Below, in pieces: positions 42,592 to 49,911 of a stretch of 64,000 nucleotides of DNA (position 1 is the stretch's first letter; every line of letters starts with the position of its first letter). The position numbers and the translations under genes are program-made. Under the pieces are notes generated by a model, which had not been told where the DNA came from, ran no database searches, and was given only the letters and a program-made list of their open reading frames with translations. Source of the DNA: Candidatus Methylomirabilota bacterium (GTDB lineage Bacteria > Methylomirabilota > Methylomirabilia > Rokubacteriales > CSP1-6); assembly GCA_035605575.1 (NCBI GenBank), contig DASTCJ010000012.1, positions 1,075 through 65,074 on the forward strand, in the 5' to 3' direction.

Positions 42592-42619
42592 ATTCTGGAA
42601 TCGGAATTCTGGAATCGGA
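42592..42619. repeat. tandem direct repeat, 2 copies of ATTCTGGAATCGGA (plus a degenerate third copy upstream)
   Basis: seen directly in the sequence, in an AT-richer divergent intergenic region between the bactofilin operon and a small + strand gene. Confidence 0.8.
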
Positions 42620-42746
42620 ATACACAGCGGCCGCGGCCGCCGCGGACACTCGCGTGCAGTGACGCGCACTTCGTTGCGCCGCTGTCACGCGCGCTAGAGG
42701 CACATGCCTTGCAGTCCCCGCCCCGGACCAATCACCAGGAGGGGTC

Positions 42747-42941
42747 ATGAACGCGATGCAGAGGTTGTCGCTCGAAGTCGAGCTGATGTCGGAGCCGTGC
42801 CTTTGGCGGTGGGAGATCCGCGATCCGGAGCGCGGTGAAGTGGTCGAGAGCAGCTGGGCGCGCGAGTGGATGGCCTACGAGTCCCCTGAAGAAGCGGAGC
42901 GCGCTGGTCGCCAGCGCCTGCGATCGCTCGCTCGCCGCTGA
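42747..42941 (+). CDS. hypothetical 64-aa protein
   Basis: AGGAGG RBS 7 nt upstream of the ATG; no recognisable domain. Confidence 0.45.
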   Translation: MNAMQRLSLEVELMSEPCLWRWEIRDPERGEVVESSWAREWMAYESPEEAERAGRQRLRSLARR

Positions 42942-42990
42942 CCGGGTCGAGAGCCCCGCCCATCGGCGGGGCTCCGAACACCGCACCTCG

Positions 42991-43233
42991 CTACATTCCG
43001 AGCTTCGCCAGTCCTTCCTTGGCCGCTTTCTCGGACTCGGCGTGCTTGCCATCCTTGTGGAGACGCTCGGCCTCCGCCGCCTTCACGCGCGCCTCGTATG
43101 CGGCGGCGTCGAGCCGGTTGCTCGCCACGGCGTTGATCTGGGCCACGAGCTTGGGGCACTGGAAAGCGTCGGCAGCTCCACCGACGAGCAACACGCTGAA
43201 TCCGGCCATGGCCACGACGACGAGACGCCCCAT
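42991..43233 (-). CDS. hypothetical small secreted protein (80 aa)
   Basis: signal peptide MGRLVVVAMAGFSVLLVGGAADA; AGGAGG RBS upstream; Lys/Ala/Glu-rich mature part. Confidence 0.5.
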   Translation of the reverse strand: MGRLVVVAMAGFSVLLVGGAADAFQCPKLVAQINAVASNRLDAAAYEARVKAAEAERLHKDGKHAESEKAAKEGLAKLGM

Positions 43234-43284
43234 CGACCACCTCCTGGTGAGTGTGGAACCGGACGGCAGTATAGCCCGAACGGC

Positions 43285-43602
43285 TCAGCCGCCGATGTCC
43301 ACGAAGAGGTTGCCATCCTCCTCGGCGATCGGATAGCAGGCGACCTTGACCGCGGGGTTGTTGACGTTGGCACCGGTCGTCACGTCCCAGCGCCACGCAT
43401 GCCACGGACAGAGGACGATCGCGCCCTCGAGATCGCCTTCGCCGAGCGGGCCGCCGCGGTGGCTACACTCGTTGTCGATCGCGTAGAATGCCCCATCCAC
43501 ATTGAAAACCGCCAGCGTTCGCCCGGCCGCCTCGAAGACGCGTCCGCTACCGAGCGGAACGTCGGCCGCTCGCGCCACCCGCACGCGCTGTCCCGCACTC
43601 AT
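43285..43602 (-). CDS. Rieske (2Fe-2S) domain protein (NirD-like small subunit / Rieske ferredoxin)
   Basis: CSHRGGPL...CPWHAWRWD Rieske ligand boxes; 106 aa. Confidence 0.85.
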   Translation of the reverse strand: MSAGQRVRVARAADVPLGSGRVFEAAGRTLAVFNVDGAFYAIDNECSHRGGPLGEGDLEGAIVLCPWHAWRWDVTTGANVNNPAVKVACYPIAEEDGNLFVDIGG

Positions 43603-43714
43603 CGTCACCCCCGCCCCTGTCCTAGCGGCCGCGCCGGCGGCTGTCAAGACGGCCGGCGGCCCGGTTCTTGATGCAAAGTACCCACGGACGACGCCACACG
43701 ACAAGGAGCTTGCG

Positions 43715-44092
43715 ATGCCACAAGGGTCCACGACGTTTCACGAGTCGGAAGAGCGGCTGTCACCGCGCACGCGCGACATGCACCGGGCGATCGTCAGCCT
43801 GATGGAGGAGCTCGAGGCCATCGACTGGTATCAGCAGCGCATGGACGCCACCGAGGATGGGGAGCTCCGTGAGATCCTGCGTCACAACCGGGACGAGGAG
43901 AAGGAGCATGCGGCGATGGTGCTCGAATGGATCCGCCGTCGCGACGACGGGTTCTCCGGCGTCCTGAAGACGTACCTCTTCAGCGAAGGCTCGATCACCG
44001 AGCTCGAGGACGTGGTCGAGAAGGGCAACGGCAACGGCGCACGCCTGGGCACGCGCGCGTCGGTCGGCTCCCTGCGTGGAGGCGGGCGATGA
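43715..44092 (+). CDS. encapsulated ferritin-like protein (EncFtn) with a C-terminal encapsulin targeting peptide
   Basis: EncFtn core (RDMHRAIVSLMEELEAIDWYQQR...HNRDEEKEHAAMVLEW); C-terminal Gly-rich linker then SVGSLRGGGR, matching the Family-1 cargo-loading peptide; AAGGAG RBS. Confidence 0.8.
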   Translation: MPQGSTTFHESEERLSPRTRDMHRAIVSLMEELEAIDWYQQRMDATEDGELREILRHNRDEEKEHAAMVLEWIRRRDDGFSGVLKTYLFSEGSITELEDVVEKGNGNGARLGTRASVGSLRGGGR

Positions 44093-44901
44093 GCGACTAT
44101 CTGCGGCGTCACACCGCTCCGGTTTCCGACCGCGTCTGGAAGGCCCTCGACGAGGCGGTGGCCCAGGCCGCCCGTCACGTGCTCGCCGCGCGGCGCATCG
44201 CCACGTTCGACGGACCCCACGGCTGGGATCACGTCGCCGCACGCACCGGCTCGATGACCCCGTGCGGAGCGCCCGAAGGCCGCGCGGTCGTCTGCGTGCC
44301 CGAGGTGGTCCTGCTCTGCGAGATCCGCGTCGACTTCGCGCTGCCATGGTCCTCGATCGAAGTCTTCGAGCGCGGCGCGCCGGTGCTCGACACCGGCCCC
44401 GCCGAGGCCGCCGCGCGGGAAGCGGCGCTCGCCGAAGATCGGCTGGCCTTTTACGGTGACCCGGTCGGCGGCGGATTCTTGACCGGCAAGGAGAGTCCCC
44501 GCGTCAAGGCGCAGACCTGGTCGCGCGGCGCCGAGATGCTCGGCGACCTCCTGCGCGCCGTGGAGACGCTCGACGAGCGCGGAGTTCCCGGTCCCTACGA
44601 AGCCGTGCTGCCCACGGCCCGGTATTACGCCTATCTGCAAGCCGTCGATGACAGCGGTTACCCGACGGCGCGGCAGCTCCGCGACGTGTTCGCCAACGTT
44701 CATCGCTCGCCCGTGATCTCCGGGGCCGGGGCCGTGTTCTCGACCCGCGGGGGCGATTTCGTGCTCACCGTCGGCGGGGATCTGGCGGTCGGCTATCGGC
44801 TCCACGACCGGGATCTGGTCCACCTTTTTTGCGCCGAGACTATCGCCGCCCAGACAGTGGCCCCGGAGGCGGTGTGCGTGCTGGAGGCTATCGTCACGTA
44901 A
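44089..44901 (+). CDS. Family 1 encapsulin nanocompartment shell protein (HK97 fold, linocin M18-like)
   Basis: 270 aa; N-terminal region aligns to the T. maritima encapsulin (LRRHTAPVSDRVWKALDEAV...FDGPHGWDH); ATGA overlap with the EncFtn stop. Confidence 0.85.
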   Translation: MSDYLRRHTAPVSDRVWKALDEAVAQAARHVLAARRIATFDGPHGWDHVAARTGSMTPCGAPEGRAVVCVPEVVLLCEIRVDFALPWSSIEVFERGAPVLDTGPAEAAAREAALAEDRLAFYGDPVGGGFLTGKESPRVKAQTWSRGAEMLGDLLRAVETLDERGVPGPYEAVLPTARYYAYLQAVDDSGYPTARQLRDVFANVHRSPVISGAGAVFSTRGGDFVLTVGGDLAVGYRLHDRDLVHLFCAETIAAQTVAPEAVCVLEAIVT

Positions 44902-44972
44902 GCTCGTATATGTAGAAATTACAGGCCGGTAGGTGCACTGAGTTCTCGCACTACGCGAAGTCGCGTGGTACG

Positions 44973-46037
44973 GTGGCTCCGTTGCGCCCGCGTCGTGTGC
45001 CGCTCGTCGTGCTCTCGTTGGTCCTCGTTGCTATTACTCTGCTCGCTCTGCCCGTCAGCGTGCTCCATGCCGATCCGCCGACGTCGGCGGTGCCCGCGCA
45101 TCATCTCCTGCGGGGATACCGCAACGTCGACGGGACGTACCGCTATACGGTGCTCGATCGAGCCGAGCGGCTGCTCAAGCAGACCCTCGCGGGCTGGCCC
45201 GAGCGCGGCGAGAGGCCCCGGGTGCTGCCCAACGACGGTGCGGCACTTCGCGCCAACGGCACGCAGCCGACGATCACCTGGATCGGGCATTCGACGCTGC
45301 TCGTGCAGATCGCCGGCGTGAACGTCCTCACCGACCCCATCTGGAGCGATCGCGCCAGTCCGGTGGCCTTCGCGGGCCCGCGACGTCTCGTAGCGCCGGG
45401 TGTGCGCTTCGAGGATCTGCCGCGCATTCACGCCGTGGTGATCTCGCACGACCACTACGACCACCTCGACGCCGACACGATCGCCCGGTTGGTGCGCGTC
45501 CATCATCCCCGGTTCTTCGTGCCGTTGGGGATCAAGGAGTGGCTGCGCGACCACGGCGCGCGTGACGTCGTCGAGCTCGATTGGTGGGAGGCCGCCGACT
45601 TCCGCGGGCTCACCTTCACCTGCACACCCGCGCAGCACTCCTCGGGTCGCGGCCTGCGCGATCAGAATCTACGACTGTGGTCCTCCTGGGTCGTCGCCGG
45701 CGGCGGCAAGAAGCTGTGGTTCGCGGGCGATACCGGGTACACGCCGTCGCTCCGCGAGATCGGCAAGCGGCTCGGTCCCTTCGACCTCGCCGCGGTGCCG
45801 ATCGGCGGTTACAGCGCGTACGAGGCCAAGCATCCGAACCACGTGAATCCCGAGGAGGCGCTCCAGCTCTTCGAAGAGGAGCACGCTCGGCTGATGGTGC
45901 CGATCCACTTCGGGACCTTCGAGCTGAACCGCGAGCCGTTCGCCGAGCCGCCGGCGCGCCTGCTGAGAGCGGCGCTGGCGCAGGGCCTCGAAGAGCGCAT
46001 CGCGATCCTGTCCGCCGGCCAGACGATTCACTGGTAG
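44973..46037 (+). CDS. MBL-fold metallo-hydrolase (NAPE-PLD-like)
   Basis: HDHYDHLD metal-binding motif; N-terminal signal/TM segment; 354 aa. Confidence 0.8.
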   Translation: MAPLRPRRVPLVVLSLVLVAITLLALPVSVLHADPPTSAVPAHHLLRGYRNVDGTYRYTVLDRAERLLKQTLAGWPERGERPRVLPNDGAALRANGTQPTITWIGHSTLLVQIAGVNVLTDPIWSDRASPVAFAGPRRLVAPGVRFEDLPRIHAVVISHDHYDHLDADTIARLVRVHHPRFFVPLGIKEWLRDHGARDVVELDWWEAADFRGLTFTCTPAQHSSGRGLRDQNLRLWSSWVVAGGGKKLWFAGDTGYTPSLREIGKRLGPFDLAAVPIGGYSAYEAKHPNHVNPEEALQLFEEEHARLMVPIHFGTFELNREPFAEPPARLLRAALAQGLEERIAILSAGQTIHW

Positions 46038-48058
46038 TCGGGCGCCGCACACCGCAGCCACGCCCGTAGCACTTCCGCCACGCTCCATGCCTGCGCGACG
46101 CAGCCACGCGGAGTGAACGGCGCCTCGGCGTCGAAGATCTCGCTGATGCTTCCGACGCACGCCTCGTTCAAGTGATTCTTGAAGCCGCCGAGCCAGCGCC
46201 GGGCGCCGTCGCGGTCGGCGGGGTGGACACGCAGCCAGGCATCGACGAACGGACCGATGAGCCACGCCCACACGGTGCCCTGGTGATAGGCGGCGTCGCG
46301 CGCGCGGAGATCGCCGAAGTAGCGCGGCTTGTAGTCGGGATGATCGCGCGCCAGCGAGCGCAGACCGACCGGTGTCAGCAGTCGCTCGCGGACGACGTCC
46401 ACCACGCGCTCCCAGCGCGCGGCGTCGAGGACGGGATGCGGCAGCGACACCGCGAAGATCTGATTCGGTCGACACGCCGGGTCGTCACCCTGCTCGCCGT
46501 CGATGACGTCGTAGAGGTAGTCGCCGTCCTTGTACCAGAAGCGCGCGTTGAAGGCACGCCCCGCCTGCGCCGCCAGATCGCCGTAAGGCTGCGCGGCCGC
46601 GTCGCCGTCGGTGTCGCGCGTCCATCGCTCGAGCAGCCGGAGCGCGTTGTACCAGAGCGCGTTGATCTCCACCGGCTTTCCCCGGCGCGGCGTCACGATC
46701 CAGTCGCCCACCTTGGCGTCCATCCATGTCAGCGGGAGCGCCTCGAAGCCCTGGCGAAGGAGACCGTCGGCGGGATCGACGCCGATGCCGAACCGCGTCC
46801 CCCGCACGTGGTGGCCGATGATCTCGCGCAGCACGGGCAGCACGAGGCCGAGCGTGGTCAGGTCACCGGTCGCGTCGAGATAACGGTCGAGGGCGTGGAA
46901 GAGCCAGAGTGTTGCGTCGGCCGTGTGATACACGCCCTGGTTCTGCCCCTCGGGGAACAGATTCGGGATGAGGCCATCGTGGACGGACTGGGTGAACGTC
47001 CTCAAGATGTAGCCGGCCTCCGGCTGGCGGCCGGTGGCGAGGGTGAGGCCCTCCAGGCTGATCATCGTGTCGCGGCCCCAGTCGGTGAACCAGTGGTAGC
47101 CGGCGATCACGGTGCGCACGTCGTCGCCGGCGGCGCGCGCGCGCGCGGCGTCCTCGACGCGGCCGTTCGGCGTGATGACGAACTGATCGGCGGCGAGGAC
47201 CAGATCGGCCGCGAAGCCCGAGCGCGCGGCAGACGGCGCGGCGGCGAGCAGGCGGCGACGCCGCTCGCGCTCCGCGGTGCGCGCCGCGTCCGGCGTGAGG
47301 GCGAGCATGACCGACCAGTCCTCGGTGGACCCGATGAGCGTCGCGTCGCCGCCGATGGAGAGCTCGCCGTGAAACTCGCCGGGACTCCAGAGCGCGCCCC
47401 TGTCGTCGTACCCGCGACTGCTCTCCACCGTGTAGAGCACTTCGTCGATGCGCCGGCCGTCGACCGTGAACGCCGCGCGATCACCGACGAGAAAGAGTCG
47501 GAGCGCCGGGAGCGCGGCCGGGCCACGAATCTCGTAGCGATCGCCCGTGACGCTGAGCGTGTAGGTCGCGGGAGTGTTCTCGCTGACGGGCGCATCGTGC
47601 AGCCGGAAGTGCAGCGCCGGACGCAGCTCGAGTCCGAGCGGCCCGCCGCCGGAGACGAGACGGTAGCGGAGATGGACGGTGTTCTGTCGGTGCGGCATCA
47701 AGAGCTGCTTCTCCACCACCGCGTCGCCCACCCGGTATCGCCACACCGGCAGACCGGTCTCGAGACGGTAGTCGCTCAGCCGCGCCGCGTGAGAACCGGC
47801 GCCACCGACGACGGACACGGCACCGTCGGGGCCATGAAACGACTCTGCGACCTGATTCAGCATGACGACTCGGCCGAGCGGAGCGGGCAGCGCGGCGATG
47901 AGCAGGCCGTGATAGCGCCGCGTGGCGACGCCGGCGACGGTACCTGAGGCGTAGCCGCCGAGCCCGTTGGTGACGAGCCACTCGCGCGTGAGCAGCGGCT
48001 CCCCGTCCTGCCCGCCGCTTTCGGTCAGCTCGATGTGCCGAACGCGGTCGGCGGTCAT
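46028..48058 (-). CDS. glycogen debranching enzyme (amylo-alpha-1,6-glucosidase, GDE_N+GDE_C archaeal type)
   Basis: 677-aa in-frame segment starting MTADRVRHIELTES; (alpha/alpha)6 GDE_C motifs (GYHWFTDWGRDTMISL); upstream codons of ORF 46028..49243 overlap treZ in another frame and are artefactual. Confidence 0.8.
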   Translation of the reverse strand: MTADRVRHIELTESGGQDGEPLLTREWLVTNGLGGYASGTVAGVATRRYHGLLIAALPAPLGRVVMLNQVAESFHGPDGAVSVVGGAGSHAARLSDYRLETGLPVWRYRVGDAVVEKQLLMPHRQNTVHLRYRLVSGGGPLGLELRPALHFRLHDAPVSENTPATYTLSVTGDRYEIRGPAALPALRLFLVGDRAAFTVDGRRIDEVLYTVESSRGYDDRGALWSPGEFHGELSIGGDATLIGSTEDWSVMLALTPDAARTAERERRRRLLAAAPSAARSGFAADLVLAADQFVITPNGRVEDAARARAAGDDVRTVIAGYHWFTDWGRDTMISLEGLTLATGRQPEAGYILRTFTQSVHDGLIPNLFPEGQNQGVYHTADATLWLFHALDRYLDATGDLTTLGLVLPVLREIIGHHVRGTRFGIGVDPADGLLRQGFEALPLTWMDAKVGDWIVTPRRGKPVEINALWYNALRLLERWTRDTDGDAAAQPYGDLAAQAGRAFNARFWYKDGDYLYDVIDGEQGDDPACRPNQIFAVSLPHPVLDAARWERVVDVVRERLLTPVGLRSLARDHPDYKPRYFGDLRARDAAYHQGTVWAWLIGPFVDAWLRVHPADRDGARRWLGGFKNHLNEACVGSISEIFDAEAPFTPRGCVAQAWSVAEVLRAWLRCAAPDYQ

Positions 48059-49911
48059 CGCGTGCGGGGGCCGGGTCGGAACACGAGCGCAGTCTGCGCT
48101 GGCAGCCGCCACGGGCCGTCGGGATCGAACGGAGCAGCGCCAGATCCGCCGTACCGGGGGTCTTCCGTCGACCACGTGAGGTGCCAGCGGGCGTCCTCGG
48201 GCGGAGCGAGCAGCGGCTCGGGAACGACCGCGAGCGGCAGGTCGGCACCGAGGTTGACGACGAGCAGCCGGTCGCCCGCCTCTTCCCCGAAGAAGCGAAT
48301 CGCGAAGGCCTCGGGACCCAGCACGGCGCCGTCGACGCCGTGCGCTCCCTGGGTGCTGAACACCGCGTCCTGACGGCGCAGTGCGAGCAGGTCGCGGTGC
48401 AGCGCGTAACTCGGCCCATGACGCACGCGCTCGCCGAGATCGAGCTTGCACGCCTCGAAGGTCGAGGCCGCGCCGGGATCGGGCACGCAGGCGCTGACGT
48501 CCGCGGCGGCGATGCTCGGGAATTGCGCCAGGAATTCCGTCCGGCCCTTGCGGACCAGCTCGGTCAGCTCGGCCCGATGGTCGGCGAAATACAAGAACGG
48601 CGTCGAGGCGGCGAACTCCTGGCCCTGGAAGAGCATCGGCGTCGCCGGGGCAAGCAGCAGCAGCGCGGTCATCGCCCGCCAGCGTCCGGGACCGGTCAGC
48701 ACATGCAGGCGCTCGCCGCGCGCCGAGTTCGCGACCTGGTCGTGATTCTGGATGTAGGCGACGAAGGCGGCCGGCGGCACGTCGCGGGCCGGCACGCCGC
48801 GTCGCTTGCCCTGCCACGCGTAGTATTGCCCCTGATACAGGTAGCCATGCTTGACGGCGGACACGAGCTCTTGCGGGCGCCCGCCATAGTCGGAGTAGTA
48901 GGCCTCGGCGCGGCCGGTGAGGGCGACGCGGGCGGTGTGATGAAAGTCGTCGTTCCAGACCGCATCGAGTCCATACCCGCCGCGCTCGGGCGGGCGCACC
49001 AGGCGCGCGTGCTGTGGCTCGTTCTCGGCGACGAAAAACACGCGGCGCTGCGGCGCCGCCGCCCGCGCGCGCTCGACAATGTCGACGAGCACGTGACGCG
49101 GCGAGGCGTCGAACATCTGCTGGGTGGCGTCGAGGCGAAGCCCATCCATGTGGAACTCGTCGATCCAGTACGCCGCGTTCGCGCCGAAGAACTCGCGCAC
49201 GGGACCCGCGTCGGGCCCGTCGAAGTTGATCGCCTGACCCCACTCGTTGCGATAGCGATCGGTGAAGTACTGCGAGGCGAACGCTCCGAGGTAGTTGCCG
49301 TCGGGTCCGAGATGATTGTAAACGACGTCGAGAATCACGCCGATGCCCGCCGCGTGCGCTCGGTCCACGAAGTGGCGGAGATCGTCAGGCGCGCCGTAGA
49401 GTCGCGTCGGTGCGAAGAGCGACACACCGTCGTAGCCCCAGCCAAATCCTCCCGGGAAATCCGCGACCGGCATCATCTCGATCACCGTCACCCCGAAGCG
49501 CGCCAGCTCCGGCAGCTCGGCGGCGGCCGCCCGCCATGTCCCTTCGCGCGTGAAGGTGCCCACGTGCATCTCGTAGATCACCTGCCCGCCCCGCGGAACG
49601 CCGGGCCAGCCCGCGTCGCTCCAGCGGAAGCTGTCGGGATCGACCACCGCCGACGCACCGTGCGGGCCATCGGGCTGCCACCGCGATACGGGATCGGGAT
49701 ACGACTCGCCGGCGTCGAGGCGGTAGCGATAGCGGCCGCCCACGCCGATGGCGGCGACGCCGGAAAAGTACCCGCCGGGCTCCGGCTTCAGCGGAGTGAT
49801 CGCACCGGTCTCGTCTTCAACGTCGACCGAGGTTGCACGCGGCGCCCACACACGGAAGTGGGTCCCGTGCCCGCGCGGCTCCGCCCCGACCGGAAGGCGT
49901 CGTGTCGGCAT
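48055..49911 (-). CDS. treZ: malto-oligosyltrehalose trehalohydrolase (GH13)
   Basis: N-terminal E-set domain (FRVWAP), PDPVSRWQPDGPHGASAVVD, VIYEMHVGTFT and GH13 catalytic regions (GFRLDA-like DGLRLDAT, NHD); 4-nt overlap with the GDE gene. Confidence 0.85.
   Translation of the reverse strand: MPTRRLPVGAEPRGHGTHFRVWAPRATSVDVEDETGAITPLKPEPGGYFSGVAAIGVGGRYRYRLDAGESYPDPVSRWQPDGPHGASAVVDPDSFRWSDAGWPGVPRGGQVIYEMHVGTFTREGTWRAAAAELPELARFGVTVIEMMPVADFPGGFGWGYDGVSLFAPTRLYGAPDDLRHFVDRAHAAGIGVILDVVYNHLGPDGNYLGAFASQYFTDRYRNEWGQAINFDGPDAGPVREFFGANAAYWIDEFHMDGLRLDATQQMFDASPRHVLVDIVERARAAAPQRRVFFVAENEPQHARLVRPPERGGYGLDAVWNDDFHHTARVALTGRAEAYYSDYGGRPQELVSAVKHGYLYQGQYYAWQGKRRGVPARDVPPAAFVAYIQNHDQVANSARGERLHVLTGPGRWRAMTALLLLAPATPMLFQGQEFAASTPFLYFADHRAELTELVRKGRTEFLAQFPSIAAADVSACVPDPGAASTFEACKLDLGERVRHGPSYALHRDLLALRRQDAVFSTQGAHGVDGAVLGPEAFAIRFFGEEAGDRLLVVNLGADLPLAVVPEPLLAPPEDARWHLTWSTEDPRYGGSGAAPFDPDGPWRLPAQTALVFRPGPRTR

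Follow-up and report, generated by a model that had tools for sequence, protein, structure and literature searches.

EncFtn is a ferritin-like cargo protein of Family 1 encapsulins in which, as described by He et al., the di-iron ferroxidase centre is formed by Glu32, Glu62 and His65 (with Tyr39) contributed by two chains, and the entry site is formed by Glu31/Glu34 (PMC5012862). In Haliangium ochraceum (structures 7odw, 7oe2 and 5n5f), a T=1 shell contains four EncFtn decamers, and the linker of the H. ochraceum EncFtn gives an offset of ~3 nm. In Myxococcus xanthus, the T=3 iron-storage shell EncA has several cargos, EncB, EncC and the ferric reductase EncD. In the IMEF encapsulins of Firmicutes, a Bfd-like 2Fe-2S ferredoxin encoded in the operon is a secondary cargo with an N-terminal TVGSL motif (PMC8346489). 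According to the published rule, Family 1 targeting peptides have a single or double GSL motif, after which one or two positive residues follow. A 64,000-nucleotide stretch of contig DASTCJ010000012.1, which as a whole is called the window here, contains an EncFtn gene followed by a Family 1 shell gene. It is considered very probable that this pair specifies a two-gene Family 1 encapsulin nanocompartment for iron oxidation and storage in an uncultured soil bacterium of the Rokubacteria/Methylomirabilota. The gene structures, family membership, catalytic and targeting motifs, conservation and fold described below were observed directly. An initial annotation of the window had arrived at the same core reading, a Family 1 operon of an EncFtn cargo and a shell, and profile searches, sequence comparison and fold prediction all supported it.

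To the 270-aa product of the second gene, the initial annotation had attributed an HK97-fold shell similar to encapsulins. It was found that this protein matched Linocin_M18 (PF04454) over its full length with 202 bits (E 9e-60; cutoff 24.3) and the equivalog model NF041155 encap_f1 ('family 1 encapsulin nanocompartment shell protein'), also over its full length, with 206 bits (cutoff 100). The PF04454 search had been proposed together with the annotation, and instead of the failure to match that would speak against an encapsulin, a strong match was obtained. Full-length matches were also found to the solved shells of Rhodospirillum rubrum (9ry4, E 1e-37), H. ochraceum (7odw, E 1.5e-37) and Thermotoga maritima (3dkt, E 2e-31), and the solved shells of Klebsiella pneumoniae and Mycobacterium tuberculosis likewise aligned with it full-length. 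The T=3 shell of M. xanthus and the T=4 shell of Quasibacillus thermotolerans gave much weaker matches (E 1e-17 to 1e-12). An AlphaFold2 (AF2) model built from 47 sequences with identity down to 30% had a predicted local distance difference test score (pLDDT) of 76 and a predicted template modelling score of 0.70; with a shallow alignment (19 sequences, 73-93% identity), the pLDDT was 37 and the model was unusable. When the former model was compared with the PDB by Foldseek, the best 50 matches were all encapsulin shells, with template modelling (TM) scores of 0.67-0.77, most of them 0.72-0.77. The protein is therefore a single-domain HK97-fold protein of the Family 1 shells, with both profile scores above the curated thresholds.

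The product of the first gene was assigned to the EncFtn family, which has a ~100-aa half-ferritin core of two helices. It matched PF22277 with 135 bits (E 6e-40; cutoff 27), TIGR04535 'encapsulin-associated ferritin-like protein' with 139 bits (cutoff 125) and NF058679 EncB_fam with 90.2 against a cutoff of 90, and the alignment with R. rubrum EncFtn (33bf/5da5, E 8e-36) was ungapped across residues 1-97. The profile check suggested earlier for this protein thus had a positive outcome. The initial annotation had noted a 125-aa ferritin-like open reading frame (ORF) with Glu/His ligand motifs, and both motifs were found, MEELEAIDWYQQR at residues 30-42 and EEKEH at residues 61-65. The residues E31, E32, E34, W38, Y39, E62 and H65 were present in the window EncFtn and invariant in all 44 distinct Rokubacterial orthologues, and those of the ferroxidase centre and the entry site were identical in kind and position to those of R. 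rubrum EncFtn. Most orthologous loci, like the window, had a GGAG-containing purine-rich stretch ahead of the EncFtn start codon.

Behind this core, the linker was highly variable in length and sequence among the 45 orthologues, its flanks being conserved; the linker of the window protein corresponds to that of the H. ochraceum EncFtn. Despite this variability, essentially all of the ~45 orthologues ended at the extreme C-terminus in [STVIL][VIL]GSLR[GRA][GA]R, and the window EncFtn accordingly carries a GSL motif with a basic residue after a flexible linker. Several targeting peptides have been published for comparison: the T=1 consensus is DGSLGIGSLKG, the T. maritima peptide is NTGGDLGIRK, the H. 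ochraceum peptide is GSLGIGSLR with the core GxLGIxxL, and the M. xanthus peptide is PEKRLTVGSLRR, of the LTVGSLRR type. The window peptide matched the T=1 consensus in its second half only. Judged by its residues, it is of the single-GSL type and is closest to M. xanthus LTVGSLRR. Since it has a single GSL, the earlier statement that the C-terminus matches the Family 1 consensus holds for the distal half ([IV]GSLR) and had to be dropped for the proximal half. Among the other window ORFs with 50 aa or more, none had a terminus resembling a targeting peptide; a secondary cargo in the window was therefore rejected, EncFtn being the sole ORF of this size with such a terminus. At one locus (L042, 5620-6004), a 398-aa ORF joined EncFtn and the shell. 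A true fusion was rejected for this locus, since the ORF resulted from a 1-nt frameshift in the GC-rich linker and the normal terminus TVTVGSLRGAR, followed by a stop codon, was readable in another frame. The frameshift was probably an indel of the long-read assembly and not a bacterial Flp-fusion encapsulin.

The EncFtn gene ended at 44092 and the shell gene started at 44089, so that the stop and start codons overlapped as ATGA, just as the initial annotation had reported. This overlap suggests translational coupling of the two genes. To study the distribution of the pair, one genome per species was scanned, and 45 loci were obtained, of which 42 were labelled as Rokubacteria/Methylomirabilota, two as 'uncultured bacterium' and one as 'Acidoferrum'. 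In every related locus with upstream sequence, the EncFtn gene was located directly 5' of the shell gene and in most cases overlapped it in the same way, as expected for a dedicated cargo gene of the same operon. Because this adjacency was found in at least three different genomic contexts, it may be concluded that the pair behaves as a unit. An identical shell protein was encoded on 18 contigs of soil metagenomes sampled from farmland and forest in China, where the neighbouring genes were also the same. In NCBI, close relatives already carry the name 'family 1 encapsulin nanocompartment shell protein [Methylomirabilota bacterium]'. In a library clustered at 50%, the nearest full-length shell representatives were 64, 54 and 50% identical to the window shell and the next were at most 38% identical; this drop indicates a distinct sub-clade of a known family. 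When diverse shells were sought by a profile search, most of the matches were again the Rokubacterial proteins, and the only distant sequence came from K. pneumoniae. Fifteen of the loci formed a sister clade, whose shells were ~60-69% identical to that of the window. Acquisition of the operon as a horizontally transferred island was rejected, its GC content (0.65-0.73) not being distinct from that of the flanks. The features of the locus and its surroundings are collected in Table 1.

Table 1. Features at and around the encapsulin locus (positions are those of the window).
Feature	Position	Strand	Remarks
Small ORF, 64 aa	42747..42941	+	AGGAGG just upstream; no Pfam/NCBIfam match
Small ORF, 80 aa	42991..43233	-	AGGAGG just upstream; no Pfam/NCBIfam match
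Rieske [2Fe-2S] protein, 105 aa	43285..43602	-	PF00355, 67 bits
Intergenic region, 112 bp	43603..43714		Between the divergent Rieske and EncFtn genes
Intergenic motif CTGTCAAG	43641-43648		Conserved TGTCAAG
Intergenic motif GGCCCGGTTCTTGA	43658-43671		GGC[AC]CG-N4-[TG]TG[CA]; in the window GGCCCG-N4-TTGA
Shine-Dalgarno AAGGAG	43703..43708	+	6 nt 5' of the EncFtn ATG; direct sequence reading
EncFtn cargo, 125 aa	43715..44092	+	ATG 43715, TGA 44090-44092; two-helix ferroxidase core at residues ~8-97
Flexible linker LEDVVEKGNGNGARLGTRA, residues ~98-115	44006..44059	+	Gly/Asn-rich; variable between conserved flanks
C-terminal targeting (cargo-loading) peptide SVGSLRGGGR	44060..44089	+	Conserved GSL and basic residue
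Family 1 encapsulin shell, 270 aa	44089..44901	+	ATG overlaps the EncFtn stop codon as ATGA
Shell C59, C69	44263-44265, 44293-44295	+	E-loop; clade-invariant
Shell C248, C263	44830-44832, 44875-44877	+	C-terminal P-domain strands; clade-invariant
Secreted metallo-beta-lactamase (MBL)-fold hydrolase	44973-46037		Downstream of the shell gene
Glycogen debranching enzyme (GDE_N/GDE_C, 676 aa) and alpha-amylase-family/DUF3459 protein (618 aa)	46028-49911	-	Downstream
Bacterial type IB topoisomerase, 369 aa	49941-51050	+	Top1B_N_bact and eukaryotic-type Topoisom_I catalytic core; ~5 kb past the encapsulin genes

Comparison with the described systems showed that R. rubrum EncFtn (Rru_A0973) and its Family 1 shell were the best sequence matches for both proteins. 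Besides the identical catalytic residues, the R. rubrum system shares the position of the cargo gene 5' of the shell gene and the C-terminal linker with a targeting peptide. However, its shell is only ~33% identical to that of the window and lacks four cysteines specific to the Rokubacterial clade, and neither the linker nor the peptide is alike. The H. ochraceum system was similar in both proteins (shell TM 0.76-0.77; EncFtn E 3e-31) and in operon logic, and its targeting peptide likewise ends in IGSLR, but it has the full GxLGIxxL core, whereas TRASVGSLR of the window keeps only the distal [IV]GSLR. The M. xanthus system provides the closest published targeting peptide (TVGSLRR versus SVGSLRG in the window) and has a ferritin-like cargo and an iron-storage role, the latter being predicted from sequence for the window. 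Its 287-aa T=3 shell is nevertheless far more distant (E 1e-16 to 1e-17), EncB and EncC match the window EncFtn weakly (E 1e-8 to 5e-4), and it has several cargos including a ferric reductase, whereas one recognisable cargo was found in the window.

On the basis of these homologues, the following course of events may be proposed. Translation of cargo and shell would be coupled through the ATGA overlap. By self-assembly of the shell protein, an icosahedral cage with the HK97 fold would arise; in line with the closest solved relatives, it would most likely be a 60-mer with T=1 and a size of ~24 nm. The decamers of EncFtn would be ring-shaped, and within them two chains together would make a symmetric di-iron centre (E32, E62 and H65, with Y39) located behind the entry site (E31 and E34). 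The SVGSLR peptide, carried on the linker, would dock in a hydrophobic luminal pocket of the P-domain of a shell protomer, and the decamers would thereby be packaged during shell assembly. Fe2+ would enter through the shell pores and be oxidised by EncFtn at the inter-subunit di-iron centre. As storage by EncFtn alone is not possible, the Fe3+ mineral would then accumulate inside the shell and remain there. The predictions on assembly, T number, packaging, ferroxidase activity and mineralisation are all made by analogy with characterised homologues.

Several points weigh against this interpretation. The predicted assembly, T number, cargo loading and iron chemistry depend on homology to proteins with 30-35% identity for the shell and ~60% for the EncFtn core. 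The targeting peptide is without the first half (GxLG) of the T=1 core GxLGIxxL, and since it resembles the type of the T=3 M. xanthus system, its mode of binding is not certain. The E-loop of the shell (residues 38-75) was modelled at low confidence. In addition, the sequence does not separate an iron reserve from a role in protection against Fe2+ and oxidative stress.

Encapsulins and phage capsids share the HK97 fold, and sequence searches may confuse them (PMC8346489), so that the shell could be taken for the major capsid protein of a remnant prophage lying by chance next to an unrelated ferritin-like gene. This is extremely unlikely in view of the score of 206 bits with the family 1 equivalog model, the best 50 structural matches being encapsulins throughout, the overlap of the shell gene with a cargo gene that encodes a targeting peptide, and the conservation of the pair in 45 genomes. 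Moreover, gene calls and Pfam searches within +/-10 kb of the locus on a metagenome contig with the identical shell (L001), alongside which selected ORFs of the window were re-checked, revealed cellular genes only and no terminase, portal, protease or other phage genes. The prophage explanation is effectively refuted, and the nanocompartment remains the preferred interpretation of the pair. A different question is whether its shell is itself redox-active or metal-binding, with the four clade-specific cysteines engaged in disulfides or in a metal or Fe-S site between subunits, by which the pores would be gated or electrons passed across the shell. C59, C69, C248 and C263 were invariant in 44, 44, 44 and 43 of the 44 Rokubacterial shells, respectively, at identities down to 60%, and among 114 full-length representatives of other family 1 shells, taken from clusters at 50%, there was no protein with the complete set. 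However, the equivalent positions elsewhere are mostly hydrophobic (L/I/V/F; G/A/R at position 69), so the cysteines may be simple substitutions in the core. Conservation of 90% or more is shown by ~44% of the columns of the clade alignment, so that invariance as such carries little weight as evidence; furthermore, the nearest outgroups have one pair or three of the four cysteines, and the E-loop, which holds the first pair, had low confidence in the AF2 model. The cysteines could be structural, redox-related or lineage-specific core substitutions, and a redox-active or metal-binding shell is very unlikely.

The initial annotation had also suggested that a divergently transcribed Rieske gene and two small ORFs with ribosome binding sites might indicate a redox partner with a role in mobilising iron. 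These genes are real: the Rieske protein contains the ligand motifs C46-S-H48 (CxH) and C65-P-W-H68 (CxxH), and AGGAGG precedes each of the small ORFs. As a soluble electron donor, this protein would reduce and mobilise the stored Fe3+, in analogy to Bfd-bacterioferritin or to the Bfd-like ferredoxin of IMEF systems, which likewise encode a small 2Fe-2S protein beside an iron-storing encapsulin. The window protein differs from the latter in that it is Rieske-type, divergently encoded, without a targeting motif and inconsistently linked to the encapsulin. When the neighbours of the pair were compared with the 45 loci by tblastn, the Rieske gene adjoined the pair in 28 of them, including one (L038) in which the pair was inverted relative to the Rieske gene and the adjacency was kept; two loci had too little upstream DNA to be scored. 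All 28 loci also shared further neighbours with the window (the 64-aa ORF, TPR, bactofilin or MBL genes). In all 15 sister-clade loci, whose gene neighbourhoods differed markedly from that of the window, no Rieske gene was found within the flanking sequence, which extended for 2 kb or more ahead of EncFtn. Adjacency was thus limited to one sub-clade in which the whole region is syntenic, and shared ancestry of gene order explains it. Among six Rieske relatives examined (67-74% identity), the encapsulin adjoined three, one of which had a different gene downstream of the shell, a point in favour of a partnership, as are the common 112-bp intergenic region with conserved motifs and the precedents of ferredoxins in encapsulin operons (PMC8346489) and of reductive iron release by an encapsulin-associated protein, as known for EncD (PMC11126975). 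Yet two other relatives (72-73% identity) kept the 80-aa-ORF/bactofilin/TPR or the TPR backbone with no encapsulin, and the sixth (70%; L056 5001-5309 / L057 2287-2595), possibly a paralogue, was part of a radical-SAM operon. Neither the N-terminus nor the C-terminus of the Rieske protein contained a [VILT]G[ST]L or GSL motif, and a full-text literature search, in which four papers contained both terms but never in the title or abstract, gave no functional link between Rieske proteins and encapsulins. An in-operon position with a targeting motif and conserved co-occurrence across lineages, by which an encapsulin-associated ferredoxin would be recognised, were therefore both lacking; the IMEF ferredoxin is the only precedent for a ferredoxin redox partner. 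The suggestion of the initial annotation was not sustained, because the adjacency is bound to one sub-clade and the protein has no targeting motif. A role of the Rieske protein as electron donor is unlikely, and a functional link of any kind, while conceivable, has a similarly low probability and is unsupported, comparative genomics arguing against it. Still somewhat less likely is the combined proposal that the encapsulin of one sub-clade has a dedicated external Rieske redox partner, possibly co-regulated and perhaps acting via the four shell cysteines, for reductive iron release.

The region between the divergent genes presumably holds the promoter of the encapsulin operon. In 27 aligned orthologous intergenic regions, TGTCAAG and, as judged by eye, GGC[AC]CG-N4-[TG]TG[CA] were conserved and the remainder had diverged; in the sister clade without the Rieske gene, neither motif was present ahead of EncFtn. 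A scan of 42600-45200 for the sigma-70 consensus gave no site. On the minus strand, TGTCAAG reads as TTGACA and is a possible -35 element for the Rieske gene. The second motif, found at other loci as GGCACG-N4-GTGC, showed a loose likeness to the -24/-12 elements of sigma-54 promoters; since the window copy ends in TTGA, without the canonical GC at -12, no sigma-54 dependence is claimed.

Gene calling on independent metagenome contigs also gave both small ORFs, and they were conserved in related genomes. Within the Rieske-adjacent clade, most loci had the 64-aa ORF, at 55-93% identity, and the 80-aa ORF had an N-terminal hydrophobic segment resembling a signal peptide. The Rieske gene has the same direction as the 80-aa ORF and is separated from it by 51 nt, and because this pair was kept at two loci (L052/L053) with no adjacent encapsulin, it may form a unit of its own. 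The Rieske relative in the radical-SAM operon was flanked on either side by a radical-SAM gene, of which one was MoaA-like (Mob_synth_C), with a 4-nt overlap of coordinates in each case. In five sister-clade loci, Pfam identified the neighbours of the pair as alpha-amylase-like, M48 peptidase, RelA/SpoT, zincin and AbiEi-like genes; Pfam searches of selected ORFs were used there, since gene calling based on GC content at third codon positions was non-discriminating at ~70% GC.

After the stop codon of the shell gene, the region 44902-44972 was locally AT-rich (gctcgtatatgtagaaattacagg) within surroundings of ~69% GC. No clear intrinsic terminator was found between the shell gene and the next gene downstream; the sole terminator-like hairpin with a T-run nearby (44806-44820 plus CACCTTTTTT, to 44830) was inside the shell coding sequence. 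Further downstream, a listed 1071-aa ORF (46028-49243) was an over-extension of the glycogen debranching enzyme gene. Rfam and tRNA scans across the whole window gave no matches.

If the Rieske partnership were true, it would represent a Rieske-type, non-encapsulated counterpart to iron mobilisation via Bfd/ferredoxin and via EncD. With regard to the encapsulin pair itself, soil Rokubacteria/Methylomirabilota possess a distinct sub-clade of EncFtn-type Family 1 encapsulins with a single-GSL targeting peptide. The value of this finding lies mainly in annotation, and the pair of shell and peptide could serve as an additional tool for encapsulin engineering.

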